64,000 bases of DNA from an uncultured delta proteobacterium. Lineage in GTDB: Bacteria > Chloroflexota > Dehalococcoidia > Dehalococcoidales > BS750m-G39. The notes below the pieces were generated by a model. The model was not told the origin of the DNA. It made no database searches and worked only from the letters and a program-made list of their open reading frames with translations. Shown here piece by piece: positions 2,616-18,185 of this stretch; the first letter of the stretch is position 1; each line of letters begins with the position of its first letter. The DNA lies in NCBI GenBank assembly GCA_963739245.1, contig CAVTZP010000007.1, positions 26,927 through 90,926 on the forward strand, written 5' to 3'. The translations under genes were made by a program, and so were the position numbers.

Positions 2616-2645
2616 AGTATATCTTATCGGTGAATGAGAAGTCAA
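2616..2645 (-). promoter_or_regulatory. candidate sigma-70 promoter for cooC-fhs
   Basis: Read on the minus strand: TTGACT, 18 nt, TATACT. It sits about 115 nt upstream of the cooC ATG. Confidence 0.35.
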
Positions 2646-2661
2646 TAGATTGCGTTGTTCC

Positions 2662-3900
2662 TTATTTAGTTCTCTGCTCTTCTATCAATTTCTCCCCATA
2701 CTCAAGTAAAAGCTTGGCTCGTTCTAGGGCTATCTTCTTTGATTCAAGATAAGCCTTCAGGGCGTCAAGGGGGGTTATTTCCTCAGCTGTCCACTTTCCC
2801 AGCCTGAGGCGGGTCTCCCGCTTAATATCCTTGGCAATGGTAAGGTAATAAGCCTCTTTCATGGCATTCCTGATGTCATTGTCCCTCAGCCCACCTTCGC
2901 CCTCCGCCGGCAGGCTAATGCTCAGCCGTACTATGGCATCCTTTATCTTGTCTTGCTGCTCAGCGATAGCTTTGAGCACTGTTGCCGTCGGGCCGGTGTC
3001 CTCCGGTTTAATATCGGCACTAATAGTAAGAAATCGGCGGCCAGTCACCGGATGGAAGTCAAAGGAAATAACCCTTCCCCCCTTTTCCTTACTCGGGTCA
3101 ATTTCCACGAGGTAAAAGCCCTTATCATCCTTCTCCTCGCCGAAATCAAGTCGCTCCAGACTGCCGGGATAAACTACCGGCGGGTCACTATTCAGAACCT
3201 GGTGTTTGTGAATATGACCTAGGGCAATATAATCAAAGGCAGGATTGGCAACATCGCTCAGCAGTAAGGCATGCTCCTGCCCGATGACCATTGACCTCTC
3301 TGAGCCTACCTGGGCGCCGGAGACCCAGACATGGGCCGCCAGTATCGCCGGCAATTCCGGGGCAAGCTTTGCGATATCGGCCGCGATGACACTGCTTAGT
3401 GCCTGCTCCAGCCTCTGGTTTATCTGGTCAAGGGTTAGATTTTTGGTCTCTTCTCTAGTCAGTAGAGCGCTGCGCCTCAGCCAGGGTAAGGAGACGATTT
3501 GAACTGTCCCGCTATTGGTCGGAATACGGTATATCTCAGGGCGGTTGGAGACATAGACATTTCTCACCGCCAGGGTATCAAAGATTTCAGTGGTAGTAGC
3601 CCGGCCGATGGCATTAGGCAGGTCGTGGTTGCCGACGAGGAGAAAGATAGGAATACCGCTGGTGGAGAGGCGATTAATTCTTTTGGCAAACTCCCGCTGG
3701 TGAGTCTGGGTTGGCTCGCGGCTTCTATAAGCATCGCCGCAGAAGAGGACAAGGTCTACCTTATTCTCTATGGCAAAATCCACTACCTGGTCTAAAGCAT
3801 TTAGAAAGTCAAGCAGGCGCGAGGATAGTCCAGTAGCCGGGTCAAGATGACCATAGGTCTCAACGCCAAGGTGAAGGTCGGCAAAGTGGAGGATTTTCAA
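2662..3900 (-). CDS. sbcD: SbcD/Mre11-family nuclease (calcineurin-like phosphoesterase)
   Basis: 412 aa with metallophosphoesterase motifs HFADLHLG, GDAY and GNHD. TTG start. No sbcC-like partner is adjacent. Confidence 0.75.
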   Translation of the reverse strand: MKILHFADLHLGVETYGHLDPATGLSSRLLDFLNALDQVVDFAIENKVDLVLFCGDAYRSREPTQTHQREFAKRINRLSTSGIPIFLLVGNHDLPNAIGRATTTEIFDTLAVRNVYVSNRPEIYRIPTNSGTVQIVSLPWLRRSALLTREETKNLTLDQINQRLEQALSSVIAADIAKLAPELPAILAAHVWVSGAQVGSERSMVIGQEHALLLSDVANPAFDYIALGHIHKHQVLNSDPPVVYPGSLERLDFGEEKDDKGFYLVEIDPSKEKGGRVISFDFHPVTGRRFLTISADIKPEDTGPTATVLKAIAEQQDKIKDAIVRLSISLPAEGEGGLRDNDIRNAMKEAYYLTIAKDIKRETRLRLGKWTAEEITPLDALKAYLESKKIALERAKLLLEYGEKLIEEQRTK

Positions 3901-3917
3901 CCTCTCCCCCCCCCTAT

Positions 3918-3945
3918 TATTAAAAAGAGGGGCTTCGCCCCTCTT
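3918..3945 (-). terminator. Rho-independent terminator downstream of glyQS
   Basis: Minus strand reads AAGAGGGGC-GAA-GCCCCTCTT followed by TTTTTAATAAT, starting 7 nt after the glyQS stop. Confidence 0.7.
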
Positions 3946-3951
3946 AACTCC

Positions 3952-5331
3952 CTACTGTTTAGATGTTCCCCCCTCTTTCCATATCTTGCCGCCGGGGGGA
4001 AGGATAAATAGGTCTTCGCCTTCCAGCTTGGCTTGGAGGGTCTTCTTTAGCTCGGCGATGGGGACTCGTATCTGGTTCAGGCTGTCGCGCTCCCTGATGG
4101 TGACCTGCTTATCCTCAAGCGACTGGAAGTCAACGGTAACACAGAAGGGGGTGCCAATCTCGTCCTGGCGCCGGTAGCGCCGCCCGATTGACTGGGCATC
4201 ATCATACTGCGTCATAAAGTGCCGGCGCAGGTCAGTGTATATCTCCTTAGCCAGAGAGGCCAGGTTCTCCCGCCGGCTCAAGGGCAATATCGCCACCTTA
4301 ATTGGGGCCAGGTCGGGGTGGAGATGGAGCACCACCCGTAGTTCGCCCTCAGCCATCTCTTCATCATAGGCATCGCACAAAAAAGCAAGGCAGGAGCGGT
4401 CAACCCCAGCCGATGGCTCAATGATATAAGGGGTGATATGCTCCTTGGTCTCTTCATCATAATAGCTCAGGCTCTTGCCGCTAAAACTTGAGTGCTGAAC
4501 CAGGTCAAAGTCGCCGCGGTTGGCAATACCCTCCAGCTCCGCCCAGCCCATAGGGAATAGATAGTCAATGTCAGAGCACTCCTTGGCATAGTGCGCCAGT
4601 TCTTCTTTGCTGTGCGGGCGAAGCCTGAGGTTTTCCTTCTTGATGCCCAGCTTCGCATACCAGTTGGTGCGCTCCTCAACCCAGTAGTCAAACCACTGCT
4701 TAGCGCTATCCGGCTTAACGAAGAACTCAATCTCCATCTGCTCAAACTCGCGACAGCGGAAGATAAAGTTGCCGGTGGTAATCTCGTTGCGGAAGGCTTT
4801 GCCTATTTGAGCGATGCCGAAGGGCAGCCTCTTTCTGGTGCTATTGACCACATTCTCAAAGTTGACAAACATACCCTGAGCGGTCTCCGGACGCAGATAG
4901 ACCACACTAGCCTCGTCCTCAATCGGACCGATAAAGGTCTTAAACATCAGGTTAAACAGGCGAGGCTCGGTCAGCTCGCCACCGCAGGAGGGACAGCTAC
5001 TGCCCTTTAGCTCATCACTGCGCCAGCGCAGGTGGCAGCTCTTGCACTCAACCAGAGGGTCAGTAAAACTTTCAATATGTCCGCTGGCTTCCCACGTCCG
5101 GGGGTGCATCAGGATACTGGCATCCAGACCCACCATATCCTCGCGTTCCTGAACCACTGCCCGCCACCAGGCCCTTTTTACATTCTGTTTCAGCTCTACA
5201 CCCAGAGGTCCGTAGTCCCAGCAGCTGGACAAGCCGCCATAGATTTCGCTGCTGGGGAAGATAAAGCCGCGCCGCTGGCACAGCGAGACAATCTTTGCCA
5301 TATCAACCTTCGCTGGTGCTGACTCAGCCAC
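3952..5331 (-). CDS. glyQS: glycine--tRNA ligase (single-chain class II type)
   Basis: 459 aa with the typical N-terminus RRGFIFPSSEIYGG, class II motifs and a C-terminal anticodon-binding region. Confidence 0.9.
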   Translation of the reverse strand: MAESAPAKVDMAKIVSLCQRRGFIFPSSEIYGGLSSCWDYGPLGVELKQNVKRAWWRAVVQEREDMVGLDASILMHPRTWEASGHIESFTDPLVECKSCHLRWRSDELKGSSCPSCGGELTEPRLFNLMFKTFIGPIEDEASVVYLRPETAQGMFVNFENVVNSTRKRLPFGIAQIGKAFRNEITTGNFIFRCREFEQMEIEFFVKPDSAKQWFDYWVEERTNWYAKLGIKKENLRLRPHSKEELAHYAKECSDIDYLFPMGWAELEGIANRGDFDLVQHSSFSGKSLSYYDEETKEHITPYIIEPSAGVDRSCLAFLCDAYDEEMAEGELRVVLHLHPDLAPIKVAILPLSRRENLASLAKEIYTDLRRHFMTQYDDAQSIGRRYRRQDEIGTPFCVTVDFQSLEDKQVTIRERDSLNQIRVPIAELKKTLQAKLEGEDLFILPPGGKIWKEGGTSKQ

Positions 5332-5815
5332 GCTGCCCTCCTCTCACCTTTGACAAAATCAAGACTCCGAACATCACTAGACTAATAGTAACTAGCCCCA
5401 GAACAACTAACAGAAATACCCACATCGGCATAAGGTGTATTTGGTATGAATTGTAGCTGAAAATATCAACCATTGCAAAGCAGATTATAAACTGAGGCAG
5501 GGCAACGAAATTACCCGTAAATAAGACTAACCTCTCCGGTTTTATCTTGGTGCTCCCGGCTTGCCCGAATAAAGTGCTTAGTTTAGTTACCCCCCAAGCA
5601 ATGCCCCCACCCAGAAGGACAAAGACAAGCTGTAGCGCAAGCACCCAGAACATGGTCATCTCCCGGCTTAGCCACCTATCTGGTGTGCCATCAGGCTCAA
5701 AGTGGTAGGCTACCTCGGCAGGAAGCAGGGGGTAAAAGTAGGCTGACAAAGCCGCAGACAGGAGTAAAATGGCTATCGGCACTATGATGTAGCTCAGGCG
5801 CATATCAATTTTCAA
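5324..5815 (-). CDS. DUF1648-like integral membrane protein
   Basis: 163 aa with 4 predicted TM helices. The N-terminal segment YHFEPDGTPDRW resembles the DUF1648/SdpI-type N-terminal domain. Confidence 0.45.
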   Translation of the reverse strand: MKIDMRLSYIIVPIAILLLSAALSAYFYPLLPAEVAYHFEPDGTPDRWLSREMTMFWVLALQLVFVLLGGGIAWGVTKLSTLFGQAGSTKIKPERLVLFTGNFVALPQFIICFAMVDIFSYNSYQIHLMPMWVFLLVVLGLVTISLVMFGVLILSKVRGGQRG

Positions 5816-5816
5816 T

Positions 5817-6683
5817 TCAAAGATACGGGGCTAATACCCTCATTGGTGATACTATGTTTCGTGACAGCCCCAGGGCGTCAGGCTTGATACCCAGGGCGAC
5901 ACCGACCAGTTGCGTAAGGAAGAGGACGGGAAGGTTATACTTGGTCTTGAACCGGCTGTTGACCTGGCTCTGGTAGGCATCAAGGTTAATCTGACACAAG
6001 GGGCAGGGGGTAACCAGACATTGGGCGCCATTCTCCTGGGCATTGCGCAAAAGTTTATTAATCAGCTCCAAGGCCACCCCTGGCTCAGGCATAACCAGAG
6101 AGCTACCACAGCAACGAGCCTTCAGCTCCCAGGAAACGACATCAGCCCCAAGACTGGCTACCAGCTCATCCAGTGAGTGGGGGGACTCCGGGTCATCGAA
6201 GCCATCGGGACGAACCAACTGACAGCCGTAGTACGACGCTACCCTAAGCCCCTTGAGGGGCTTGGTTACCTTAGCCCTGATCGCCTCAGGGGTAATATCG
6301 TTATATAAGACCTCAGCCAGGTGCCGAACCCGAACTCCTCCCTTATAGTCCAAACCAGCCGCAGCCAGTGCCTCACCTACCTTCTTTTTGAGGATGGGGT
6401 ATTCCTTAAGATGGACATTGGCTCCGTGTAAGACGACAAAACAATTGGAGCACGGGGTTACCAGGTCAAGTCCGGTCTTTTCCGCCAGTACTAGATTTCT
6501 GGCGGCAATGCAGGCCGCCTCCAGCTTATCTACCGAACCGTAGGGGCTGGAGCCGCAGCAATTCCAATCATCAAGCTCAACCAAGTCCATATCCAATTCC
6601 TTGGCAACAGGTAGGACCGAAAGACCTAAGTGTGAAGCTGTAGCCTCAGCTGAGCAACCAGGGAAATAGGAATAACGTTTCAT
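5817..6683 (-). CDS. hdrB: heterodisulfide reductase subunit B-like (two CCG domains)
   Basis: 288 aa with two CCG-domain motifs: NCCGSS...PCSNC and RCCGSS...PCPLC. Confidence 0.85.
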   Translation of the reverse strand: MKRYSYFPGCSAEATASHLGLSVLPVAKELDMDLVELDDWNCCGSSPYGSVDKLEAACIAARNLVLAEKTGLDLVTPCSNCFVVLHGANVHLKEYPILKKKVGEALAAAGLDYKGGVRVRHLAEVLYNDITPEAIRAKVTKPLKGLRVASYYGCQLVRPDGFDDPESPHSLDELVASLGADVVSWELKARCCGSSLVMPEPGVALELINKLLRNAQENGAQCLVTPCPLCQINLDAYQSQVNSRFKTKYNLPVLFLTQLVGVALGIKPDALGLSRNIVSPMRVLAPYL

Positions 6684-7231
6684 TTAGCACCTCCCAGAAC
6701 CCTGGCTTTATTCAGGATAGCCCTAAGTTCGCCTATTCCCTTTATCCGGCTTGGCTTTAGTGGCAGGCGCTGATGCAAAAGTAACCCCAGCCCGACCGGT
6801 GCTAGCTTAAGGGCGGCAAAGGGATTGGTTTTAAGGAAGAGCTTGAGCATCATGCCGAGCTCATATACCCGCCCATTGCCCTTAGCTGAGTCAACAAAGC
6901 ATTGATACATCACCGGTGTCCGGCTTAGCCTGGTGCTCAAGCCATTCTTGATAGCTAGGACTTCCAGGGCATGCATAATATCCGTAGGCTTAATGTCCCG
7001 CGGGCAACGCACGGTGCAGGCATAACAAGAAGCACAGAACCACATGGAATTGCTGGATAATAACTCGTCCCTCAGCCCAGCCCGCACCATAGCAATAGTC
7101 TGCCGCGGTGCGTAGTCCCATTTGGTAGCAGTAGGACAGGAGCCGGTGCACATACCGCACTGAATACAGGAACGAATAGCCTCGCCACCGGGGACGGAAC
7201 ACACCTCATCAATAAAGCTCATCTCAGCCAT
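6680..7231 (-). CDS. hdrC: heterodisulfide reductase subunit C-like (2x[4Fe-4S])
   Basis: 183 aa with CIQCGMCTGSCP and CASCYACTVRCP motifs. Translationally coupled to hdrB by a 4-nt overlap. Confidence 0.8.
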   Translation of the reverse strand: MAEMSFIDEVCSVPGGEAIRSCIQCGMCTGSCPTATKWDYAPRQTIAMVRAGLRDELLSSNSMWFCASCYACTVRCPRDIKPTDIMHALEVLAIKNGLSTRLSRTPVMYQCFVDSAKGNGRVYELGMMLKLFLKTNPFAALKLAPVGLGLLLHQRLPLKPSRIKGIGELRAILNKARVLGGAK

Positions 7232-7246
7232 TTAGATTCCTCCTTC

Positions 7247-10200
7247 TTATACCAAAACCCCCTCTATCTCAGCCATTAATTCCCGGGTAGTAAAGTGCCT
7301 GCCAGCAATGGCGCCGCTGGGACAGGCAGCTACGCACACACCACAGCCCTTGCATAGCGTCTCGTTAACCCGGCTGACCCTCTTTTCCTCATCAAAGGAA
7401 ATGGCATGGAACGGACAGAGAGCACTACATGTCTTGCATCCGGAGCAGAACTCCTCGTCAACCACGGCCGTAGTCGCCTCAATCTCTATTTCGCCGGCAG
7501 TGATGGTAGCCAAAGCCCGGGCGGCAGCCGCTGAAGCCTGAACCACACTCTGCGGAATATCCTTGGGCGACTGACAGCAGCCGACGACGAAAATGCCATC
7601 GCTCATTGTTGCCACCGGGTCAAGCTTGGGGTGCTTCTCCAGGAAGAAACCATCGGCACTTCGACTGAGTGAAAACAGCCTAGCCATCTCATCGGCATCT
7701 GCCCTCGGTTGGAGAGCCGTGCTCAATACTACCATATCAACCGGGACACGGCGCTGGCGACCGATGAGGGTGTCCTCAACGACTATAATAAGCTTGCCCT
7801 GCTCCTCGGGACTCTCGGTGATATTGGTTACCTCCGCCGGGCGGCCACGGACAAATATTGTCCCTTCATCAAGAACGCGGTTATAGAACTCCTCAAAGGC
7901 TTTACCCACGCATCGGAGGTCAATATAGAATTCGTAGACCTGGGCTCCGGGGACATGCTCTCTTATCAGGTGACCAAACTTCATTGAGTACATGCAGCAC
8001 ACCTGCGAGCAATACTCATGATACTTCTTATCCCGGCTACCCACGCAGTGGATAACACCCACCGTCTTGGGATGGGAGCCATCCTTCAGCTTAACCTCGC
8101 CGCTGGTTGGTCCCGAGGCATTAATCAGCCGCTCAAACTCAAAGGCGGTGATGACATTATCAAGACGTCCATAGCCATAATAGTAGAGCGGAGTCGGGTC
8201 AAAGGCATCGTAGCCAGTAGCTAGGATTATGTTACCAACCTCCACCTCCACTAGCTCCTCCCTCATCTCCTGATTGATTGCCCCGGCTTGGCATATCTTA
8301 ACGCACTCCATGCACTCAGAACACACACCACAATTCAAGCAACGCTTGGCTTCGTCAATAGCCGTCTTTTCATCAAAGCCGAGCTCAACCTCGGCAAATC
8401 CCTCCCGCCTCTTAGGGTCAAGCGTTGGCATAGTATGCCTTGCCCTGGCTACTACCCCCTGCTTTGACACCTCTTTCACCCTGGTGATAGGGGCTGGTCT
8501 CCCCGCTTTCAGGTCAACCCCCCTGAGGTGGCGGTCTATTGAGATGGCGGCTTCCTTGCCCGCAGCAATGGCGGCAATGACATCGTCAGGACCGGAAACT
8601 ACATCGCCACCGGCAAAAACACCCTCAATGTTTGTCTGCAGGGTTACCTGGTCAACAGCCAGAGTCCCCCACCCGGTGTATTCAAGCTCCTTGGGCAGCG
8701 CTGCCTTATCCATCGCCTGCCCGATGGCGACAATTACACTATCAACATCCATATTGAATTCCGAGCCCTTAATCGGCATCGGGCGCCGACGGCCACTGGC
8801 ATCAGGTTCCCCCAGCTCCATCCGAATACACTGGATGCCAGTTACCCGCTCATCCTTAGCTAGAACCCTGACCGGCGCGGTCAGGAGGTGGAGATTTATT
8901 CCCTCACGCTCCACCTCATCCATCTCAGTGGAAACAGCGGGCATCTCAGCTCGGGAGCGCCGATAGACAAGAGAAACCTCTTTTGCCCCAAGGCGATGGG
9001 CTACCCTAGCGGCGTCTACCGCCGCATTGCCCCCGCCGATAACCACCACCCTCTCCCCAAGGTCAACCTTAATCCCCAAGCTAACCTGCTTTAGAAAATC
9101 CAGGGCATGGATTACACCCTTGGCGTCTTCATTAGGTATCCCCATCTTCAAACTTTCCCCGGCACCGCTAGCCAGGAATATGGCTTCATAGCCCTGACTG
9201 AAGATATCCTCAAGGTTCTTCATCGGGGCATTGGTCTTTATCTCCACCCCCAGCTCTTCAATATAGCTAATTTCATTAGCCACTACCTTCTTTGGCAGCC
9301 TGTGTTCAGGGATACCGTAGCGCAGAAGACCACCGCTTGCCGGGGCAGCCTCAAAGACGGTAACCGGATATCCTTGCCGTATCAGGTCGTAGGCGCAGGC
9401 CAATCCCGCTGGACCAGAGCCAATAATCGCTACCCTATCTTCCTTCGTCCGTTCAATCGGGGTTGCCTTCTTCCTCCCCACCTTCAGCTCGTAATCAGCC
9501 ATGAAACGCTTTAGAGCGCGGATGGAAACCGGCTCATCAACCTTCCCCCGCTCACACTCCAGCTCACAGGGGTGAGTGCAGACACGCCCGCAGACGCCGG
9601 CAAAGGGCATAGTTCGCCGCAGCACCTCAAGGGCTTCCTTAAACTTACCCTGAGAGATAAGGGCGACATACCCCTGGGCATTTACCCCGGCCGGACAGGC
9701 AGAGCGGCACGGTGGGTAGCCCCGCTTATCAACAGTAAAGGCATTGGGCACCGCCTGAGGGAAGGGCCTATAGATTGCCTTCCTCTGCCCCAGCCCAAGG
9801 TCAAACTCGTTGGGTACCGTAACGGGGCAGGAATTAGCACACTCACCACAGCCGGTGCACTTATCAATATCTACATATCTAGCCTTCTTTTTTATCTTAA
9901 CCTTGAAGTTGCCAACATACCCTGAGACATCAACCACCTGGCTATAGGACATTAGCTCAACATATGGGTGAGCCCCAGCCAGACTCATCTTAGGGGTAAG
10001 AATGCAAGCCGAGCAGTCAAGGGTGGGGAAGGTCTTATCCAGTTGCGCCATATGCCCCCCAATGCTGGGCGTTCTCTCCACCAGGTAGACCTTATGCCTG
10101 GAATCAGCAATCTCCAGTGCCGCCTGAATGCCGGCAATGCCCCCTCCCACCACCAGGGTATTGGGGTTGACCGGGACTCTCTTGGGCTCCAGGGGCTCCT

Positions 10201-10588
10201 GATAGGCAACACGCCTTATCGCGGCGCTAACCAGAGCCTTGGCTTTCTCGGTGGCAGCAGCACGGTCTTCGGTTATCCACGAGCAATGCTCCCTGATATT
10301 AGCCATCTCAAAGAGGTAGGGGTTTAATCCTGATTCCTGGCAGACCCGGCGGTAGGTTCGCTCATGCAGCGTTGGGGAACAGGAAGCTACCACCACCCGA
10401 TTAATCCCCAGCTCCTTAATATCCTGTCGGATAAGCTCCTGCCCTGGGTCAGAACACATATACATATAGCGGCGAGCAATAGCTACAAAAGGCAATTCCC
10501 GGGCAAATTCAGTAACCGCTTCCACATCCACCGTGCCCGCGATATTGGTCCCACAATGACAGACATAAACACCGATTTTGGGCTCCAC
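7247..10588 (-). CDS. hdrA: HdrA-like flavoprotein with a nested GltD/NfnB-like NAD(P)H-binding module
   Basis: 1113 aa, GTG start preceded by GGAGGA. It has an HdrA N-terminal Cys domain (VYVCHCGTNIAG), the FAD motif VVGGGIAGIQAA, and a C-terminal 2x[4Fe-4S] domain. Residues ~288-690 are a complete glutamate-synthase-small-subunit-like module (GRVCTHPCELEC, IIGSGPAGLACAY, VIGGGNAAVDAA, FAGGDVV). Confidence 0.85.
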   Translation of the reverse strand: MEPKIGVYVCHCGTNIAGTVDVEAVTEFARELPFVAIARRYMYMCSDPGQELIRQDIKELGINRVVVASCSPTLHERTYRRVCQESGLNPYLFEMANIREHCSWITEDRAAATEKAKALVSAAIRRVAYQEPLEPKRVPVNPNTLVVGGGIAGIQAALEIADSRHKVYLVERTPSIGGHMAQLDKTFPTLDCSACILTPKMSLAGAHPYVELMSYSQVVDVSGYVGNFKVKIKKKARYVDIDKCTGCGECANSCPVTVPNEFDLGLGQRKAIYRPFPQAVPNAFTVDKRGYPPCRSACPAGVNAQGYVALISQGKFKEALEVLRRTMPFAGVCGRVCTHPCELECERGKVDEPVSIRALKRFMADYELKVGRKKATPIERTKEDRVAIIGSGPAGLACAYDLIRQGYPVTVFEAAPASGGLLRYGIPEHRLPKKVVANEISYIEELGVEIKTNAPMKNLEDIFSQGYEAIFLASGAGESLKMGIPNEDAKGVIHALDFLKQVSLGIKVDLGERVVVIGGGNAAVDAARVAHRLGAKEVSLVYRRSRAEMPAVSTEMDEVEREGINLHLLTAPVRVLAKDERVTGIQCIRMELGEPDASGRRRPMPIKGSEFNMDVDSVIVAIGQAMDKAALPKELEYTGWGTLAVDQVTLQTNIEGVFAGGDVVSGPDDVIAAIAAGKEAAISIDRHLRGVDLKAGRPAPITRVKEVSKQGVVARARHTMPTLDPKRREGFAEVELGFDEKTAIDEAKRCLNCGVCSECMECVKICQAGAINQEMREELVEVEVGNIILATGYDAFDPTPLYYYGYGRLDNVITAFEFERLINASGPTSGEVKLKDGSHPKTVGVIHCVGSRDKKYHEYCSQVCCMYSMKFGHLIREHVPGAQVYEFYIDLRCVGKAFEEFYNRVLDEGTIFVRGRPAEVTNITESPEEQGKLIIVVEDTLIGRQRRVPVDMVVLSTALQPRADADEMARLFSLSRSADGFFLEKHPKLDPVATMSDGIFVVGCCQSPKDIPQSVVQASAAAARALATITAGEIEIEATTAVVDEEFCSGCKTCSALCPFHAISFDEEKRVSRVNETLCKGCGVCVAACPSGAIAGRHFTTRELMAEIEGVLV

Positions 10589-10646
10589 TTTGTCCTCCTA
10601 TGTCCGGCGCAGAATATACCAAAGGGTCTAGTTATTAAACCAAATT

Positions 10647-10675
10647 ATCTTAGCATAGGCGAATAGCAGGGTCAA
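10647..10675 (-). promoter_or_regulatory. candidate sigma-70 promoter for hdrACB
   Basis: Minus strand reads TTGACC, 17 nt, TAAGAT. It lies about 60 nt upstream of the hdrA GTG. Confidence 0.5.
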
Positions 10676-10707
10676 GACACTACCACTGCCAGAATTTGAT
10701 AAATTTA

Positions 10708-10736
10708 TTGACATTCCTATAGCGCTGTAGTAAAAT
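10708..10736 (+). promoter_or_regulatory. candidate sigma-70 promoter for the sigma-54-like/kinase/activator operon
   Basis: Consensus -35 TTGACA, exactly 17 nt, then -10 TAAAAT. It lies 22 nt upstream of the ATG at 10759 and is divergent from the hdrA promoter. Confidence 0.6.
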
Positions 10737-10758
10737 TTTTATACAGGTTAGGCAGCCA

Positions 10759-11817
10759 ATGGAGCAAAAGCAGTCCCCGCAGATGAGGCAGGAGCTAAGG
10801 CAAGTCCTCAGAATGGAGCAGGCAACCCTGCTGGAGATGCCTGAGGAGGAGTTCCAAAAGCTCATTGTCGAGATAGAGAGAAATCCCATCTTTCAAAGGC
10901 TGTACCAGAGGGAGGAGGTAATCCGCCGCCAGAGATTCCCCAGGACTGATATTTCCTCCAACTTCTATCAAATTAAACCGGAGCTAGTAGCTGATATCGG
11001 CTCACTTGATGTCGAATCTCTTCTGCTCAACAAGAAGCACATTGCCCATCAGATACAGAAACTGGGAATAGAAAAATTCAAGCGGTATTTCCTATTTCCT
11101 GAATCAGGGATGAGCGCAGAAGAAATCGCCGGGGAATGCAACCTGGCTGTTTCCGAGATGCAAAAGATTAATCGCCTCATTGATGAGTTCTCCATCTTGA
11201 GCGAGTTCTATCACCCTTCAGCTCTCAGCTCTGGAGGGGTGTATTATAGCAAGATTGCCTCAGTGGAGAAGAACCGGGAGGGCTTTATCATTGGCTACTT
11301 TTCACCCTCCCTCGCCCGGGGGAGGTATTCCATTGATTATGAAAGGTTTGAGCAATTAAAGGATACCCTAACCGCGGTTGAGATTAAGCAAATCAGGCAG
11401 TTATTAAAGAAGGTGGAGCTCGTCAATACCCGCAAGGATACCCTAACCCAGATACTGCAAGCCGTTGTTGAACGCCAAGCACTTTATCTGGAGTCTGGCG
11501 ATTTGAAGGCGCTCCTACCCTTCAACCAGAAGGAACTGGCCAGAAAGATCGGGCTTGCCCCCAGTTCAGTAAGTCGCGCCATCAGGGGCAAAAGCATTGA
11601 CACGCCGTGGGGTGAAGAAGTCCCGCTTAAGCACTTTTTCCCCAGACCGAAGAGTTTTAAGAAGGAGCTTTTAAGACAGCTTCTTGAAGCCGACAGGGAG
11701 CTTCCCTCCGATGAGGCAATCAAGGCAAGGCTACAGGATAAATTCGGTGTTGCTATCTCCCGGCGCTCGGTAGCCAACCTGAGGAAGGAACTAAAAATCT
11801 CACCAAGAAGGAGCTGA
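10759..11817 (+). CDS. rpoN: short sigma-54 (RpoN) family protein
   Basis: 352 aa. The N-terminus is region-I-like (LRQVLRMEQATLLEMPEEEFQKLIVEIERNPIF). The C-terminus has the sigma-54 DNA-binding HTH (SSVSRAIRGKSIDTPWGEEVPLKHFF) and an RpoN-box-like ISRRSVANLRKEL. Confidence 0.75.
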   Translation: MEQKQSPQMRQELRQVLRMEQATLLEMPEEEFQKLIVEIERNPIFQRLYQREEVIRRQRFPRTDISSNFYQIKPELVADIGSLDVESLLLNKKHIAHQIQKLGIEKFKRYFLFPESGMSAEEIAGECNLAVSEMQKINRLIDEFSILSEFYHPSALSSGGVYYSKIASVEKNREGFIIGYFSPSLARGRYSIDYERFEQLKDTLTAVEIKQIRQLLKKVELVNTRKDTLTQILQAVVERQALYLESGDLKALLPFNQKELARKIGLAPSSVSRAIRGKSIDTPWGEEVPLKHFFPRPKSFKKELLRQLLEADRELPSDEAIKARLQDKFGVAISRRSVANLRKELKISPRRS

Positions 11818-11818
11818 A

Positions 11819-13759
11819 ATGAGCATAGTTTATACTGACCGAGAAAAATGTAAGGGGTGCTATGCCTGCATCCGCATTTGTCCATGTAAGGCAATCAAGG
11901 TGGAGGAGGGCTTGGCCCAGGTGATAAAGGAACGCTGTATCGCCTGTGGCACCTGCCTTCAGGTCTGCGCTCCAAAGGCAAAGCAGGTGGAGAGCGACAT
12001 CGGGACAGTCTGGCAATTACTGACACAATATCCTAATGTAATCGCCGTCCTCTCCTCATCATTCCCCGCCGCCCTGCTCAAATGCAGCGCCGGACAGCTG
12101 GTAGCTGCCCTGAAAAAACTAGGGTTTAGCGAGGTTATGGAAGACTCCTTCGGTGCTGAGCTTGTTGCCAGGGAATATGCCCGGCTCATAAGTAAAGACA
12201 AAGGTAAGCCCCTTCTCTCCTCTAACTGCTCGGCAGTGGTAACCTACATTGAGAAATATCATCCTCAGCTAGTTGGCAACCTGGCGCCCATTGTTTCGCC
12301 AATGATTGCCACGGGCAGGATAATCAAATCGCAGTATAATCCCCAGGCTAAGGTAGTCTTCATTGGTCCCTGCGTAGCCAAGAAGGCAGAGAGCCGGGAT
12401 GAGAAAGTGGCCGGAGCCGTAGACGCCGTCCTGACCTTTGCCGAGCTGAAGGAGATGTTTGCCGCCAAAGGGGTTACCCCTGAAACCGAGGGAAGGGAAC
12501 CATTCTCCGGTCCCACACCCGGCATTGGTCGTCTCTTCCCATTGTCAAAAGGGCTATTCAGGGTGGCTAGACTACCCGAAGATATTGTTAAAAATGACAC
12601 GATAAACGCCCATGGGAAAGACTACGTGATTAGAATCCTTCGGGAATTCGCTGAGGGAGAAATCACCGCCAGACTTATTAACCTACATTTCTGCCATGGC
12701 TGCATTGATGGACCGGTTATTGATAATGAGCTGAGCGGCTTCAGGCGGAAGGAGCTTGTCGCCAGCTATGCTCGCAGCGAGATGAACCCGGACCAAACCG
12801 AGAAGGATATCAAGGAGTACTCCGGCACTGACCTTAAGCGCAAGTTTACCGCCCGAGGTGTGGGACTGGCAACGCCGAGTGAGGAAGAGGTCCAAAGCAT
12901 CTTAAAGAAGATTGGCAAGGAAGAGCCAAACCAGATAGACTGCGGCGCCTGCGGGTATAGCACCTGTCGGGAGCTGGCAATCTCTGTTTGCCAGGGCTTA
13001 GCTGAGGTTGAGATGTGCTGGCCATATGTGCTTCAGACGTTAAGGTCTACCCAAGAAGGCCTGATCCAAGCCGAGAAGCTGACCTCTTTGGGTCAGCTGG
13101 CAGCCTCCGTTGCCCACGAGATTAACAATCCTCTGGCCGGTGTCCTCGTCTATACCCAGTTACTAGCCAAGAAGATAAATAGCGACACATTCAGCAAAGA
13201 AAGTGCCACCGAATATCTGTCAAAGATGGAGACTGAGCTCATCCGCAGCAGCCGGCTAATCCGAAACCTTCTGGACTTTGCCCGGCAATCACCACCGAGG
13301 TTCTGGGAGGTGGACATTAACGAGGTCATTAACCGAAGTTTTGAACTTGCGGCTCACTCTGCACAACTACAGCACGTTCAGGTATTAAAAGAGCTTGACC
13401 CGGCACTGCCAAGGATTTCAGCTGATTTTGACCAGCTTCAGCAGGTTTGCACCAACCTTATTATGAATGCCATTCAGGCAATGCCAAATGGAGGTACGCT
13501 GACCATACGCACCTCGGCTGATAACACTCAGGTCAAGATAGAGGTTCAGGACACTGGTGTTGGCATTTCTCCGGAGAACATGCGCAAGCTGTTTACCCCC
13601 TTCTTCACCACCAAGCGGGAGGTGAAAGGGGTGGGGCTGGGCCTGGCGGTGTCCTATGGAATTGTCCAGCGACATCGGGGAAGGATTGAAGTGCAAAGTA
13701 AAGAGGGAGAGGGTACCACCTTTAACGTCTATTTACCACGGCACCATGAAGAAAGCTAA
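11819..13759 (+). CDS. soluble [FeFe]-hydrogenase-like sensor histidine kinase
   Basis: 646 aa, no TM segments. In order: 2x[4Fe-4S] ferredoxin motifs (CKGCYACIRICP, CIACGTCLQVCAP); H-cluster-domain-like motifs SSNCSA, GPCVAKKAE and FCHGCIDGP; a 4-Cys motif DCGACGYSTCRELAISVC; then HisKA (SVAHEINNPL) and HATPase_c (DTGVGI, GVGLGLAV). Confidence 0.8.
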   Translation: MSIVYTDREKCKGCYACIRICPCKAIKVEEGLAQVIKERCIACGTCLQVCAPKAKQVESDIGTVWQLLTQYPNVIAVLSSSFPAALLKCSAGQLVAALKKLGFSEVMEDSFGAELVAREYARLISKDKGKPLLSSNCSAVVTYIEKYHPQLVGNLAPIVSPMIATGRIIKSQYNPQAKVVFIGPCVAKKAESRDEKVAGAVDAVLTFAELKEMFAAKGVTPETEGREPFSGPTPGIGRLFPLSKGLFRVARLPEDIVKNDTINAHGKDYVIRILREFAEGEITARLINLHFCHGCIDGPVIDNELSGFRRKELVASYARSEMNPDQTEKDIKEYSGTDLKRKFTARGVGLATPSEEEVQSILKKIGKEEPNQIDCGACGYSTCRELAISVCQGLAEVEMCWPYVLQTLRSTQEGLIQAEKLTSLGQLAASVAHEINNPLAGVLVYTQLLAKKINSDTFSKESATEYLSKMETELIRSSRLIRNLLDFARQSPPRFWEVDINEVINRSFELAAHSAQLQHVQVLKELDPALPRISADFDQLQQVCTNLIMNAIQAMPNGGTLTIRTSADNTQVKIEVQDTGVGISPENMRKLFTPFFTTKREVKGVGLGLAVSYGIVQRHRGRIEVQSKEGEGTTFNVYLPRHHEES

Positions 13760-15107
13760 GGTTCTCGTTGTTGATGATGAAGCCATTATCCGCCAGTCAC
13801 TTCATGACTGGCTAAGCGACGCCGGTTACAAGGTGCTCACTGCGGAAAATGGACCAAAAGCCCTGGAGACTATTCAAAGGGAAGGTCCGAGGATTGTTAT
13901 TACTGATTTAGTCATGCCGGGGATGGATGGAATCGAGCTAATGAAGCGAGCCAAGGAGATATCCCCTGACATTGAAGTTATCGTCATTACCGCTTATGGA
14001 AGCATCCCTACCGCTATCAGCGCAATGAGAGAAGGAGCCTATGACTATATTGAGAAGCCATTCTGCCCAGAAAGGACTGAAATATTGATTGAAAAACTGG
14101 TGGAGCACCAAGGACTAATTGAGGAAAACCTTTCCCTGCACCAGAAATTGGAAGAGCGTTACCGATTTGAAAATATCATCGCCAAGAGTCCCAGAATGCA
14201 ACAGGTGATTGAGGTAATTAAGGTTGTAGCTAAGAGCAATGCTACTGTACTAATTACCGGCGAGACCGGCACCGGGAAGGAGCTGGTAGCACGGGCTATC
14301 CACTCCCAGAGCTACCGTTGTGGCAAGCCCTTTATTGCTGTCAGTTGTGCCGCCCTGCCTGAGACTCTCCTTGAGAGCGAGCTATTCGGTCATGAGAAGG
14401 GAGCTTTTACCGGGGCTTATGCTCAAAAGAAAGGGAAGTTTGAAATCGCCAGCCGGGGAACCCTGTTTCTAGACGAAATTGGCGAGATGAGCACTAATAT
14501 CCAGGTTCACCTGCTGAGGGTCCTGGAGGAGAAGGAATTCACCAGGGTTGGGGGCAATGAGCCAATTAAGGTTGACGTGCGGGTTATTTCCGCCACCAAT
14601 AGAGCCACGAAGGAGGCAATAGCCGAGGGGCGATTTCGGGAAGACCTCTATTATCGGTTAAACGTGGTCAACATTGAATTGCCTCCGTTAAGAGAGAGGA
14701 AGGAAGACATTCCCCTTTTAGCTCAGCATTTTTTGAAGGAGTTCGCCCTGGAGAATAATAAAGAAGTTAGCGGGTTTTCCTCCGAGGCTACCGATTTTCT
14801 ATTGAGATACGATTGGCCGGGTAATGTCAGGGAACTGGAAAATGCTATTGAACGAGCAGTCATACTTGCCCAAAAACCCCTAATTGAGCTTGATGACTTG
14901 CCTCAACAAACCTTGGTAGCCCCCTCAATCTCAGCGGAGAAAAACCTTAGGCAGGTGGAGAAAAACCATATTTTGAATGTCCTGGCTCAGACCAAGGGGA
15001 ATTATACCGAGGCAGCCAGAGTCCTGGGCATCTCAAGAATGACCCTCTATAATAAAGCCAGGGCATACGGAATAAATGTAAAGAAAGTAGACAAAGCCGA
15101 TAGTTAA
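13746..15107 (+). CDS. sigma-54-dependent response regulator (NtrC family bEBP: REC-AAA+-Fis HTH)
   Basis: Preferred start is MKKAKVLVVDDE at 13746, a 14-nt overlap with the kinase; the track start at 13656 is less likely. It has a receiver Asp (ITDLVMPG), Walker A GETGTGKE, the sigma-54 contact loop GAFTGA, and a C-terminal HTH (AARVLGISRMTLYNK). Confidence 0.9.
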   Translation: MKKAKVLVVDDEAIIRQSLHDWLSDAGYKVLTAENGPKALETIQREGPRIVITDLVMPGMDGIELMKRAKEISPDIEVIVITAYGSIPTAISAMREGAYDYIEKPFCPERTEILIEKLVEHQGLIEENLSLHQKLEERYRFENIIAKSPRMQQVIEVIKVVAKSNATVLITGETGTGKELVARAIHSQSYRCGKPFIAVSCAALPETLLESELFGHEKGAFTGAYAQKKGKFEIASRGTLFLDEIGEMSTNIQVHLLRVLEEKEFTRVGGNEPIKVDVRVISATNRATKEAIAEGRFREDLYYRLNVVNIELPPLRERKEDIPLLAQHFLKEFALENNKEVSGFSSEATDFLLRYDWPGNVRELENAIERAVILAQKPLIELDDLPQQTLVAPSISAEKNLRQVEKNHILNVLAQTKGNYTEAARVLGISRMTLYNKARAYGINVKKVDKADS

Positions 15108-15142
15108 GCCTTCAGCTTAAAATAGAGACGAGGCTATTGTTT

Positions 15143-15158
15143 TGGCAAGAAAATTGCA
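15143..15158 (+). promoter_or_regulatory. sigma-54 (-24/-12) promoter
   Basis: TGGCAA-GAAAA-TTGCA compared with the consensus TGGCAC-N5-TTGCW: exact spacing and one mismatch. It lies 53 nt upstream of the ATG at 15211, in the only sizeable intergenic gap of the locus. Confidence 0.75.
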
Positions 15159-15210
15159 TCTACTAAAAGTGGGAATAGGAATAGAAAGGCGGGTAACTGG
15201 AGGTAAATAG

Positions 15211-16206
15211 ATGAAACCAATACTGGTAGTAGAAGATGAAAGCATTGTGAGAGAGTCGCTCCGAGACTGGCTTACCGACGAAGGCTATCCGGTAGAGACA
15301 GTGGAGCACGGTGAAGAGGCGTTAAAGGTAATCGGGGAGCAGGACTTCAGCCTCCTCATCCTTGACATGAGGCTGCCGGGGAAAAGCGGGCTTGAGGTAC
15401 TAAGGGAAGCCAAGGCACAAAGACCAAAAATCAACAGTATCATCATTACCGCCTACCCGTCAGTAGAGACCGTAGTGGAGGCAATGAAGTTAGGCGCCGT
15501 TGACTATCTAACCAAGCCGCTTAGCCTTGACACCCTGGAAAAGCTGATTCAGCAGACCCTGGGACCAGTTCAACTGGAGATAAAGCCAAAGGCGGCACTC
15601 AAAGAAGCTACAGTTCAGCCTGCAGAAAAGGCAAAGGTTGAAGAAATCATAGCTATTGCCCCGGAGGAAATCCCGCTTCACATTAAACAGGGAAAGGAAT
15701 ACTTTGACACCGGTCGCTACGCTGAGGCGCTAAGGGAATTTGAGTCTATCCTCGCTATTGCCCCGGCCAACATTGAGACCCGGGTCTGGATTAGAAAGAC
15801 AAAGCAAACCCTGGCCGAGCCAAGGATTGAGGGAGTTGTTGTTGTAGAGGCCAAGCCCAAGGAGTGCCTCTGGATGAAGATGGGGCTGGTGTCTTATCGC
15901 ATCTGCACCCGGGATTATGACTGTCTCACCTGCGAGTTTGACCAGACGATGCAGGAGAAAATGGCGGCGGGGGAAACCCCCGAGCTTGACAAGGCATTGG
16001 CGCGATTCAGGGAGCTGCCAGGTAGTCAGCGGCTTTGCCGCTATGCCATCAAGGGCGATGTCTCCCACCGTATCTGCTCTCGCCTCTTCCAGTGCACCGT
16101 CTGCGAGTTCGGGCAGATGATGGAGGACGCCACCCAGCAAAAGCTAGCCAAGCTACAAGCACGACGGGAGGCGCTACTCAAAAAGGAGCAAAAAGCTAAA
16201 GCCTAA
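15211..16206 (+). CDS. response-regulator receiver protein with a TPR-like linker and duplicated Cys-rich C-terminal module
   Basis: 331 aa. REC domain (LVVEDESIVRESLRDWLTDEGY, LILDMRLPG), a TPR-like segment (GRYAEALREFESILAIAPAN), then VSYRICTRDYDCLTCEF ... LPGSQRLCRYA ... VSHRICSRLFQCTVCEF. Confidence 0.7.
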   Translation: MKPILVVEDESIVRESLRDWLTDEGYPVETVEHGEEALKVIGEQDFSLLILDMRLPGKSGLEVLREAKAQRPKINSIIITAYPSVETVVEAMKLGAVDYLTKPLSLDTLEKLIQQTLGPVQLEIKPKAALKEATVQPAEKAKVEEIIAIAPEEIPLHIKQGKEYFDTGRYAEALREFESILAIAPANIETRVWIRKTKQTLAEPRIEGVVVVEAKPKECLWMKMGLVSYRICTRDYDCLTCEFDQTMQEKMAAGETPELDKALARFRELPGSQRLCRYAIKGDVSHRICSRLFQCTVCEFGQMMEDATQQKLAKLQARREALLKKEQKAKA

Positions 16207-16235
16207 TCAGAACCTCCAGACTAGTGGTATTTAAT

Positions 16236-16271
16236 CAAAGGGTATGCTAAACTACAGCAGCATACCCTTTG
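16236..16271 (+). other. perfect 13-bp stem / 10-nt loop hairpin between the two receiver genes
   Basis: CAAAGGGTATGCT (16236-16248) pairs perfectly with AGCATACCCTTTG (16259-16271). No U-tract follows, and the next ATG is 21 nt downstream. Confidence 0.6.
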
Positions 16272-16291
16272 GCATGAGAAGGAGAAAACCA

Positions 16292-16909
16292 ATGGAAGCC
16301 AAGAAGAGAAAGATTCTGCTCGTAGAAGATGAGACCGTGCTGAGAGAAGCTCTGCGGGACTGGCTTACCGAGGATGGATATGATGTTGAGTGCGTTGACA
16401 GTGGCGAGAAAGCCCTGGACAGGGTCAAGAAGGAACAGTTTGGCGTCATAGTTCTTGACCTGAGGTTGCCGGGCATTGATGGCTTACAAGTTTTTGAGCA
16501 TGCCAAAGAACTCAAGTCAGAAACCAAGGGGATAATCATTACCGCCTACCCGTCAAAAGAGACCCTGGAAAAGGCGAAAAGGCTGGGGCTCCTTGACTAT
16601 TTAGTCAAGCCGTTCAAGCTTGAGGAGCTGGAGAAGTTAGTCAGAGGAGCACTGGGAGAGATCGAGGAAAAAAAATTAGGCAAGGAACACCTATGGTTAG
16701 AGCTCGGTGCTGTTTCCTATCGCCTCTGCGATCGCAACTATGAATGTGGGCACTGCGCCTTCGCCCAAGACATACAAGATAGGTTTGGCACGATAGCCGT
16801 CGTTGGCGAGGATGAGGTAAAAAGATTTAAACAGCTGCCCGGCAGTCAAAGACTGTGCCGGTATGCATCGGCACATTTTGTTAAGAAGGAAAAGGCAGGC
16901 TTAGATTAA
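16292..16909 (+). CDS. response-regulator receiver protein with Cys-rich C-terminal module (paralog of 15211..16206)
   Basis: Preferred start is MEAKKRKILLVEDE at 16292, with GGAG 8 nt upstream; the track start at 16244 lies inside the hairpin. REC domain (LREALRDWLTEDGY, VLDLRLPG), then VSYRLCDRNYECGHCAF ... LPGSQRLCRYA. Confidence 0.7.
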   Translation: MEAKKRKILLVEDETVLREALRDWLTEDGYDVECVDSGEKALDRVKKEQFGVIVLDLRLPGIDGLQVFEHAKELKSETKGIIITAYPSKETLEKAKRLGLLDYLVKPFKLEELEKLVRGALGEIEEKKLGKEHLWLELGAVSYRLCDRNYECGHCAFAQDIQDRFGTIAVVGEDEVKRFKQLPGSQRLCRYASAHFVKKEKAGLD

Positions 16910-17547
16910 GGCTTATCTGTAAAGAAACCTGCCAGCTTATCTACCACATCCCTTTGCCCTATAGCTAGAGTCAGGTCGCTGCGCGTCCTCTCCAGTACCC
17001 CGCGAACCATGTCCGTAGTATGGCGCAGACCCCCGGTTATAGCATCGGGGAAGTCTATTGTGACCAGCACGTTGTAAATATCGTCCATGGCTGACAATAG
17101 TTCCTCTCCCCGAGACAGGTCACCCTGCCTCATACTATCCAACAGGTAGCGTCTGAACTCACCGACAGCCTCACCCATTCCGTTCAGGTAGGCAACGGCA
17201 TCAATACCCAGTTCTTCAGGGTCGGGGAGACGGTTGCCGGTTACCAGGGCAAGGGTAATACTGCCCTCGGCAAACTCCTTTTGTGCATCCCTGACAAAGC
17301 CGGCATAGCTAAGCTCGCCATAGCTAGAGATAGCCGGCTCAACCTCGGTTAACAGGTTGCGGGCTGATTTGAGCAACTGCGCTGCCTGGGCAAACTCCTG
17401 GCGGTGGACAGCACGGATGGCATTGCCACAGTGACGAATTGCCTCACGACACCGGGGAAGCACCCTTTCCCTAGCCGCATCCCTAGATGATAAAGTCTGG
17501 CGAATGCGGTCAGCAATTGAATCCAAATTGTCGGTCAATCCATTCAT
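16906..17547 (-). CDS. translin-family protein (COG2178-like)
   Basis: 213 aa, all-helical, with YLNGMGEAVGEFRRYLLD resembling the translin-family core. The call is made from memory of that family. Confidence 0.5.
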   Translation of the reverse strand: MNGLTDNLDSIADRIRQTLSSRDAARERVLPRCREAIRHCGNAIRAVHRQEFAQAAQLLKSARNLLTEVEPAISSYGELSYAGFVRDAQKEFAEGSITLALVTGNRLPDPEELGIDAVAYLNGMGEAVGEFRRYLLDSMRQGDLSRGEELLSAMDDIYNVLVTIDFPDAITGGLRHTTDMVRGVLERTRSDLTLAIGQRDVVDKLAGFFTDKP

Positions 17548-18185
17548 TTGTGCACCTCAAGTTTAGCTATAATCTGTCGAGTTGCTTCTTCCATATCCTC
17601 TGCATTGAGGATGGCACTAATCACTGCCACCGCGTCGGCACCAGCCGCCAGAACCTCAGCCGCATTATCCTTGCTGATGCCGCCGATAGCCACCAGGGGC
17701 AGGCTTACTGCCTGCTTAATCTGGCGCAGCCCTTCCAGACCCACCACCACTGCCCCCTCCTTAGACGATGTTGGGTAGATTGAGCCGACGGCAATATAAT
17801 CAGCACCATCGGACTGGGCAGTGACCGCCTGGTCTACGGTATTCACCGAACAGCCAATGAGCTTGTCAATGGGTAATAGCCTGCGCGTTACCGAGACCGG
17901 CAGGTCTTTTTGACCCAGGTGTAACCCATCAGCATCAGTAGCCAAGACCAAACCGATGTAGTCATTCACGATAAAAAGCACGCCGTGCTTGGAACATAGC
18001 TCCTTTAGCCCTTGAGTTATTGACAGACGCTCGCTTTTGTCTCGGAGCTTATCACGAAACTGGATTATCTTAGCCCCACCCTGAATTAGCTGGCTGGCGA
18101 CCTCAATGTGGCTACGGCCGCCTAGAGCCTCGCTATCTATTATGGCATAAAGCCCGGTTAGCCGCCTTGCTTTATCCTGACGCAA
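17544..18185 (-). CDS. thiE: thiamine-phosphate synthase
   Basis: 213 aa, TTG start, with TMP-TENI family motifs (LYAIID, IQFRDK, GADYIAVGSIYPT, AIGGI). Confidence 0.85.
   Translation of the reverse strand: MRQDKARRLTGLYAIIDSEALGGRSHIEVASQLIQGGAKIIQFRDKLRDKSERLSITQGLKELCSKHGVLFIVNDYIGLVLATDADGLHLGQKDLPVSVTRRLLPIDKLIGCSVNTVDQAVTAQSDGADYIAVGSIYPTSSKEGAVVVGLEGLRQIKQAVSLPLVAIGGISKDNAAEVLAAGADAVAVISAILNAEDMEEATRQIIAKLEVHK

Follow-up and report, generated by a model that had tools for sequence, protein, structure and literature searches.

The gene at 11819..13759 (+ strand) of the 64,000-nucleotide stretch of DNA analyzed here (positions 26,927 to 90,926 of contig CAVTZP010000007.1, assembly GCA_963739245.1; hereafter the window) encodes a histidine kinase whose sensor region resembles the H-domain of [FeFe] hydrogenases. 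As the first-pass annotation had proposed, its domains, family clustering, and fold place it in the putative sensory branch of these enzymes in which the H-domain is fused to a histidine kinase. The reading that we tentatively favor, and to which we give just under an even chance, is that the protein is an H2-responsive, soluble cytoplasmic kinase of a group C-like branch, with an H-cluster held in a modified pocket. The parts of the protein are as follows.

11819..13759, + strand: sensor histidine kinase, 646 amino acids (aa), no transmembrane segment
11825..11977, + strand: two ferredoxin-type [4Fe-4S] motifs, C11/14/17/21 and C40/43/46/50 (Pfam Fer4-type dicluster, aa 3-53)
12032..12715, + strand: H-domain-like module, aa 72-299 (Pfam Fe_hyd_lg_C, E 1.5e-49; predicted fold; motif mapping)
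12932..13021, + strand: C-terminal cluster motif Cx2Cx4Cx16C, C375, C378, C383, and C400 (Pfam FeS PF04060, aa 372-401)
13088..13741, + strand: HisKA, aa 424-490, and HATPase_c, aa 536-641 (Pfam; H, N, G1, and G2 boxes)

Two ferredoxin-type clusters and three recognizable H-cluster motifs followed by HisKA and HATPase had been proposed from the sequence, and Pfam together with mapping of the cysteines and motifs bore out this order. The Fe_hyd_lg_C profile (PF02906), suggested at the same time as a check, matched over its full length, from position 9 to the last of its 245 positions, with 169 bits where the cutoff is 22.1. All eight ferredoxin-type cysteines are invariant in both homolog alignments compared (A1 and A2), and C375, C378, C383, and C400 are invariant in a 22-sequence alignment and in a second alignment. 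The C-terminal motif, described earlier as C-x2-C-x4-C-x-C, is an Fe-S motif with a different spacing: CGACGYSTC begins at residue 375, a further Cys lies at 391, and the conserved form is Cx2Cx4Cx16C. C400 precedes the phospho-accepting His433 by 33 residues, and in the predicted structure one continuous helix would run from C400 into the dimerization and histidine phosphotransfer (DHp) helix that bears His433. The maximum Kyte-Doolittle hydropathy over 19 residues is 1.46, indicating that the kinase has no hydrophobic segment and is soluble. HisKA and HATPase_c are joined straight to the H-domain sensor part, no PAS domain being found by Pfam, and the kinase catalytic motifs are intact (His433 in the H-box AHEINNPL, followed by NLIMNAIQA, DTGVGI, and GVGLGLA); the kinase core matches that of ZraS (9jfj, E 1.4e-43).

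The three H-cluster motifs are SSNCSA from residue 134, PCVAKKAE from residue 184, and FCHGCIDG from residue 291. Residues were mapped to canonical HydA with a MAFFT alignment that included 17 HydA from the fetched loci; pairwise HMMER alignments to hydrogenases in the PDB misplaced the APS motif and ended before motif 3, and MAFFT was used instead. In their wider context, SSNCS(P), IGPCVAKKAE, and LHFCHGCIDGP do not match the canon of the catalytic groups A and B (TSCCP, MPCxxKxxE, and ExMxCxGGCxxGGGQP). A single altered motif had been claimed; in fact all three depart from the canon, mostly in ways typical of the class, with M353 replaced by G in motif 2 and, in motif 3, Cx2C in place of CxGGC, one residue shorter. 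The claim that motif 1 keeps one Cys and loses the proton-relay Cys held: C137 aligns with a ligand, and the C299 position is N, T, or H in the Dehalococcoidia homologs. The candidate cubane ligands C137, C185, C292, and C295 (C300, C355, C499, and C503 of the hydrogenase CpI) are invariant or 99-100% conserved and line up with the canonical cysteines of the 17 HydA, the last pair as Cx2C instead of Cx3C; K188 is the counterpart of CpI K358 in the alignment. Across 22 homologs the consensus is SS[N/T/H]CP, FIGPC[VI]AKKAE, and FC[H/E]GCIDGP, so that the change from P to S in motif 1 is private to the window protein. An AlphaFold2 (AF2) model of residues 1-410 had a predicted local distance difference test score (pLDDT) of 89.9 and a predicted TM-score (pTM) of 0.89, and the best 50 matches to it in a Foldseek search of the PDB were all [FeFe] hydrogenases (TMq 0.64-0.74, E down to 4e-22), the closest folds being HydA, CpI, DdH, and CbA5H (TMq 0.70-0.74).

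The case for an H-cluster comes from the wider family. More than 120 homologs are at least 70% identical to the window protein, and every named one is from Dehalococcoidia or from Chloroflexota metagenome-assembled genomes (MAGs); the arrangement is thus no accident of one sequence. An exhaustive search with the sensor module returned 844 representatives (50% clustering, E<1e-30), and the best 150 of these matches fall into two types. Proteins of the first, typified by TmHydS of Thermotoga maritima, are about 570 aa long, have a PAS domain, and carry CxGGC in motif 3. Those of the second carry FCxGC or CCxGC and are mostly fused directly to HisKA/HATPase, others being fused to sigma-54 AAA+, MCP, or GGDEF domains. 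The window protein is of this second type, in its kinase-fused FCxGC clade, and SSxCP, GPCxAKKxE, and FCxGC are typical of a large clade of proteins with signaling outputs joined directly to the H-domain; the altered motifs of the window protein are thus mostly not private to it. On sequence grounds, this clade resembles HydDB groups C1 (histidine kinase linked) and C2 (chemotactic), and we use the C1 label by resemblance, from architecture and clustering with kinase-fused homologs.

Linkage to hydrogenase genes was surveyed in 80 loci, drawn from species-representative genomes across many phyla and encoding sensors at 37-64% identity to the window sensor, by searching the flanks with HydG, HydE, and HydF from one of the loci (L006) and with the window proteins. 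In 67 of the loci the sensor is fused to a kinase. Canonical HydA (MPCxxKKxE) lies within 10 kb in 49 of these 67; in 40 it is directly upstream, in most cases preceded by a NuoF-like HydB. One or more of HydG, HydE, and HydF occur in 29, and the loci with HydA, a maturase, or both within 10 kb number 54. When the count is limited to loci flanked by 5 kb or more on each side, the proportion with HydA or a maturase is 37/41. Because 54/67 loci lie this close to HydA and/or HydE/F/G, the kinase-fused clade probably carries a real H-cluster. Two loci are particularly direct. In L006, HydG-E-F and NfnAB-like genes are followed by an FCxGC-type sensor kinase. In L011, from an uncultured Clostridia MAG (1-18045), the order is HdrA-like, MvhD, MvhG, MvhA, HycI, HydG, HydE, HydF, sensor kinase, activator, Cys4 protein, NuoE, NuoF, and a HoxU-GcvH fusion, so that [FeFe] maturases adjoin a [NiFe] Mvh-Hdr set. 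Catalytic HydA is absent from both loci, and with HydG-E-F straight upstream, the sensor is the maturases' apparent client. We considered whether Cx2C in motif 3 marks a degenerate site and rejected this, as FCxGC-type sensors adjoin HydG-E-F in L006, L011, L015, L034, L052, and L059; the L006 and L011 sensors are both FCxGC, and the shortened motif is therefore no mark of a dead site. That Cx2C variants stand beside HydG-E-F, sometimes as the sole hydrogenase-like gene there, argues that this branch is matured, against published doubt. The HoxU-like protein of L011 also bears a GcvH-like domain, which is noteworthy because the H-protein has recently been implicated in H-cluster synthesis.

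In the mechanism that we propose, the sensor would comprise the two N-terminal [4Fe-4S] clusters, an H-domain whose modified pocket still holds the H-cluster, and a C-terminal cluster of the [4Fe-4S] type. By changing the redox state or the conformation of the H-domain and the cluster relay, H2 would shift the kinase/phosphatase balance, the signal passing from the C-terminal cluster region to His433. The phosphoryl group would then go to a translationally coupled NtrC-type activator, which, with a co-encoded short sigma-54, would fire a -24/-12 promoter at 15142-15158 and so raise expression of two receiver proteins with Cys4 modules. These receivers, which may also be substrates of the sensor kinase themselves, are proposed to act on NAD(P)H- and ferredoxin-linked Fe-S flavoenzymes (Hdr-GltD and NuoEF-HoxU-like); such enzymes carry fused receiver domains in sister loci. 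In favor of an H2 sensor, the Cx2Cx4Cx16C motif, the loss of the C299 equivalent, and the change of M353 to G all match TmHydS, which binds an H-cluster.

Several observations weigh against this reading, some concerning the whole class and others the lineage of the window protein. The authors of a published survey failed to identify standard P1-P3 motifs in the HATPase-bearing group C1 proteins of Hydrogenedentota and doubted that these sense H2. The C-terminal cluster of TamHydS from Thermoanaerobacter mathranii is not reduced by H2, so the signaling route is uncertain even in the studied relatives. The lineage is represented by five loci: the window, L005 (86% identity), L089 (78%), L088 (71%; GCA_964499445.1), and L008 (64%; the complete Dehalococcoidales chromosome CP070842.1). 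None of the five has HydA or HydE/F/G within 10 kb. No homologs of HydE, HydF, or HydG were found in the 64-kb window at E<1e-5, nor was a catalytic HydA found there, and the HydABC-like set that the window does encode (NuoE, NuoF, and HoxU-like) is without an H-domain. A protein search with HydF gave no Dehalococcoidia-named match among the best 120, all named ones being from other phyla, and is uninformative; a literature search for maturases in Dehalococcoidia genomes found nothing. The pocket itself has changed. We defined a class-invariant set of 66 positions at least 97% conserved in 30 maturase-linked kinase sensors (mean pairwise identity 49%), of which 56 are retained in 122 Dehalococcoidia sequences. 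Among the 11 class-invariant positions that we take to line the 2Fe pocket, picked afterwards on the basis of the CpI structure, 5 are changed in the lineage, against 5 of 55 elsewhere (Fisher p = 0.008, for pocket positions chosen post hoc): the A230 equivalent to S (99%), P231 to S, A, or P, S232 to S or P, the Q325 equivalent from M to M or T, and the M497 equivalent from L to H, Y, or C. These sequence data fit both a retuned pocket in the Dehalococcoidia and a loss of the 2Fe site. With no HydABC or HydEFG neighbors and a remodeled 2Fe pocket, the H2-sensor reading stands on weaker ground in this lineage than in the class at large.

These facts give weight to a second explanation, which we regard as a serious contender though somewhat short of probable: that the 2Fe subcluster has been lost, the [4Fe-4S] cubane being kept as in Nar1, and that the protein is a redox sensor that would read the reduction of ferredoxin or NAD(P)H through a four-cluster relay and drive the same circuit. 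The contrast between none of the five lineage loci and about 90% of well-flanked loci in other phyla speaks for it, as do the pocket substitutions, which fall at positions 100% conserved in maturase-linked members. The neighboring genes point the same way, since they encode Hdr-GltD, GltD-like, and NuoEF-HoxU-like redox enzymes, some with fused receivers, rather than hydrogenases, and the window has the HydABC-like set without an H-domain. Yet the 56/66 class-invariant residues that are kept include all of the cysteines and the equivalents of CpI K358, K359, E361, S323, P324, P354, G502, and G506, and the Ser that has taken the place of A230 is conserved at 99%, suggesting a new constraint and not decay. 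Moreover, gene absence over 10-64 kb says little for a genome of about 2 Mb, and variation at the C299 position is normal throughout the clade.

Two further explanations fare less well. NreB, FNR, and comparable Fe-S kinases and regulators operate by cluster damage or ligation, and damage or ligation of exposed clusters could likewise switch this kinase in response to an oxidant or diatomic gas (O2, NO, or CO), or to Fe-S integrity, in these strict anaerobes. The four Fe-S sites in the protein and the His, Tyr, or Cys at the M497 equivalent beside the cubane, each a possible ligand, would suit such a sensor; the neighborhood, however, has no pointer to an oxidative-stress regulon, and the wider clade is wired to hydrogenase operons, so we consider this improbable. 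That the H-domain is instead the missing catalytic subunit for the NuoEF-HoxU-like module, whose genes lack an H-domain both in the window and in L008, is very unlikely, given that the proton-relay Cys is absent, relatives without it turn over slowly, the H-domain forms a single polypeptide with a complete kinase core, and the window NuoEF genes lie 17 kb away on the other strand.

Whatever the signal, the kinase gene sits in a compact and conserved regulatory module. A short sigma-54-like gene, the kinase, an NtrC-type activator, and a receiver protein form a core present in 5/5 lineage loci, and the 79 other loci contained neither this sigma-54/activator/receiver-Cys4 module nor the short sigma-54-like gene. 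The elements surrounding the kinase gene in the window are as follows.

10708..10736, + strand: sigma-70-type promoter TTGACA-17 nt-TAAAAT, upstream of the sigma-54-like, kinase, and activator genes (read from the sequence)
10759..11817, + strand: short sigma-54-like factor, 352 aa (Pfam Sigma54_DBD only, aa 211-349)
13746..15107, + strand: NtrC-type sigma-54 activator (REC, AAA+, HTH_8), 453 aa (Pfam), overlapping the kinase stop codon by 14 nt
15142..15158, + strand: sigma-54-type -24/-12 promoter TTGGCAAGAAAATTGCA, between the activator and the next gene
15211..16206, + strand: receiver protein 1, with REC, TPR, and two Cys4 modules (C-x13-C-x5-C-x2-C), a probable sigma-54 target
16244..16909, + strand: receiver protein 2, with REC, one Cys4 module, and a remnant of a second

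The TTGACA-17-TAAAAT elements at 10708-10736 are kept in L005 and L008 amid diverging flanks and may well function as a promoter. The stop codon of the sigma-54-like gene lies 1 nt ahead of the kinase start codon, and the same gene, encoding 352-371 aa across the lineage, is directly upstream of the kinase in L005 (8905-9999), L008 (8886-10001), L088 (8907-10004), and L089 (8893-9999). The protein combines a weak region I with a DNA-binding domain at its C terminus and the sequence SRRSVANLRKE, which resembles an RpoN box. Its similarity to sigma-54 is confined to the last 140 residues (residues 210-350 aligning with 324-470 of the Escherichia coli protein). About 125 aa of region II and the core-binding part, as found in ordinary sigma-54, are missing, and the score against TIGR02395 is 87 bits, below the cutoff of 277. 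The activator has GAFTGA at residue 219, a Walker A motif, and a receiver Asp region; its start at 13746 follows gene calls on identical contigs and agrees with the 453-aa orthologs in L008 and L089.

The putative -24/-12 promoter at 15142-15158 is the sole intergenic, correctly oriented match with at most one mismatch in the window, and the element TTGGC[A/G]AGAAAATTGCA is found at the same place in L005 and L008, just past terminator-like hairpins, in spacers that are otherwise divergent. It is a probable sigma-54 promoter for the two downstream receiver-Cys4 genes, as judged from its sequence and position. In all, 74 sigma-54-site matches were observed in the window against 62 +/- 8 expected, i.e., chance level. 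Perfect TGGCAC-N5-TTGC sites at 13194, 23499, and 56310 were discounted because all lie inside open reading frames (ORFs); the one at 23499-23513 (- strand) is 51 nt upstream of the ORF at 21886-23448 but inside the preceding ORF, is not kept in L005, and is probably a chance match.

Orthologs of receiver protein 1 come after the activator gene in L005, L008, L088, and L089. The Cys4 module, of about 45 aa with the core G-x-V-S-Y-R-x-C...C-x2-C-x-F-x-Q, had no Pfam match at E<=1, and a homolog search gave only short unannotated fragments. It occurs in several settings, namely on receiver domains, on a TPR-histidine kinase, as a stand-alone small protein, and ahead of a GCV_H domain on a HoxU-like protein. 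Its occurrences in other loci are these.

L008: 13445-14527 and 19011-20489
L010: 13529-14524
L011: 14051-14416 and 16762-18045

Receivers are also found fused to redox subunits, a REC with a HoxU-like Fer2/Fer4 protein at 17013-18014 of L008 and a REC with a GltD-like flavoprotein at 6640-8877 of L088. The sigma-54 targets in L008 probably include NuoE, NuoF, and the REC-HoxU fusion as well. The presence of REC-HoxU and REC-GltD beside the kinase module suggests phosphorylation control of electron-transfer enzymes, and also suggests that, beyond transcription, the system works directly on redox proteins.

Genes for redox proteins elsewhere in the window are as follows.

7247-10588, - strand: HdrA-GltD/NfnB fusion, 1113 aa, HdrA interrupted by a GltD/NfnB-like NAD(P)H module
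6680-7231, - strand: HdrC-like
5817-6683, - strand: HdrB (CCG)
10675-10647, - strand: sigma-70-like TTGACC-17-TAAGAT of the Hdr operon, conserved
30618-35785, - strand: PorA, PorB, NuoE/HoxE-like, NuoF-like, and HoxU-like (244 aa)

The divergent Hdr gene group (5324-10588, - strand) also holds a DUF1648 protein after HdrB and appears to encode an Hdr-type complex linked to NAD(P)H, with no hydrogenase alongside. The HdrA-GltD gene adjoins the sensor in L005 and L089 too, and we regard the operon as a neighbor of the sensor, the tie between them being one of neighborhood. A sigma-54 promoter for hdrA was sought and rejected: there is none upstream, and the divergent spacer has conserved sigma-70-like elements in both directions. 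All of the partners of the kinase had been described as adjacent in the first-pass annotation; the NtrC-type activator, the sigma-54-like gene, and a conserved -24/-12 promoter are indeed so, whereas the claim about targets is right only in part, the receiver-Cys4 genes being the probable targets and the Hdr operon having its own sigma-70-like promoter. The match of the HoxU-like protein of the more distant group to group A6 HydA is confined to the N-terminal Fe-S part, and the NuoEF-HoxU-like set of L008 is likewise without an H-domain.

A more far-reaching account, which we offer as speculation and consider doubtful as it stands, is that an H2-sensor module was cut loose from hydrogenase and maturase genes, that its 2Fe site was lost or rebuilt (A230S, P231S/A, and H, Y, or C at the M497 equivalent) to yield a [4Fe-4S] redox sensor, and that through a private minimal sigma-54, an activator, and receivers either joined to Cys4 modules or fused to HoxU-like and GltD-like subunits it would control bifurcating Hdr-GltD and NuoEF-HoxU at both the transcript and the protein level.

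Regulatory [NiFe] systems (HoxBC-HoxJ-HoxA and HupUV-HupT-HupR) pass a signal from a hydrogenase-type H2 sensor to a histidine kinase and on to an NtrC-family activator. The metal site and fold are unrelated to those considered here, and sensor and kinase are there separate, with hydrogenase genes as targets, whereas here they are fused and the putative targets are receiver-Cys4 genes. To our knowledge, only TmHydS and TamHydS have been studied biochemically among sensory [FeFe] hydrogenases, neither with a known partner or target, and the signaling route is disputed. HydDB lists regulatory [NiFe] hydrogenases as group 2b. TmHydS (group C, M2f) shares with the window protein two N-terminal [4Fe-4S] clusters, the lack of the C299 relay, M353 to G, and the C-terminal Cx2Cx4Cx16C, but proteins of its type have the PAS domain and CxGGC, whereas the window kinase is fused directly and its FCHGC is one residue shorter. 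TamHydS (group D, M2e) has the same three-part cluster layout with Cx2Cx4Cx16C, likewise lacks the C299 relay, and has a putative sensory role; it differs in having no fused signaling domain, in its pocket (M353 to S, M497 to L), and in the position of its gene upstream of a bifurcating hydrogenase. Nar1/NARFL has the H-domain fold with the cubane cysteines, no 2Fe subcluster, and no hydrogenase activity, but it is a cluster-assembly factor and not a signaling protein, and the window protein adds an N-terminal dicluster and a C-terminal sensory-type cluster.

The closest described relatives are HydDB group C1 and the HATPase-carrying C1 proteins of Hydrogenedentota, which also combine an H-domain-like sensor with histidine kinase signaling and non-canonical P1-P3 motifs. 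Group C1 members often adjoin group A3 HydABC, and the class is labeled putative; group C genes have been noted in surveys of Chloroflexi. The Dehalococcoidia lineage differs in not standing beside HydABC or HydEFG, in its extra 2Fe-site substitutions, and in its own sigma-54/activator/receiver-Cys4 module. What appears to be new is the uncoupling of a lineage from hydrogenase and maturase genes, the remodeled pocket, a short sigma-54 of the lineage's own together with a conserved promoter, and the Cys4 receiver outputs. In line with the remark in the first-pass annotation on the signal and targets of the class, we found in the literature no experimental or biochemical work on any kinase-fused member. 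The present locus makes the question of signal and targets testable and overturns nothing. The kinase-fused branch gives a direct readout, because autophosphorylation is measurable, and the locus adds a compact chain of kinase, activator, dedicated sigma-54, one promoter, and two small outputs. The Dehalococcoidia lineage is a natural contrast to the rest of the clade that could show an H2 sensor turning into a general redox sensor, and the locus could show how the abundant subsurface Dehalococcoidia regulate Hdr/Nfn-type electron bifurcation.

Two further observations concern other loci in the survey. In Geobacter and relatives (L036, L041, L054, L056, L065, L069, L075, L081, L085, and L087), H-domain-like modules are fused to sigma-54 activator domains. 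These keep CxGGC-type spacing and have lost the equivalents of K358 and of A230/P231, and no HydA or maturase genes were found within 10 kb of the ten loci; they are candidates for degenerate, cluster-only sensors. The closest representative from outside the Dehalococcoidia (P0121, 54% identity; L007, 432-7336) stands with a HisKA_3 kinase and a LuxR-type regulator in a locus divergent from sat and aprBA, genes of sulfate activation and reduction, which places the same sensor beside another energy pathway.

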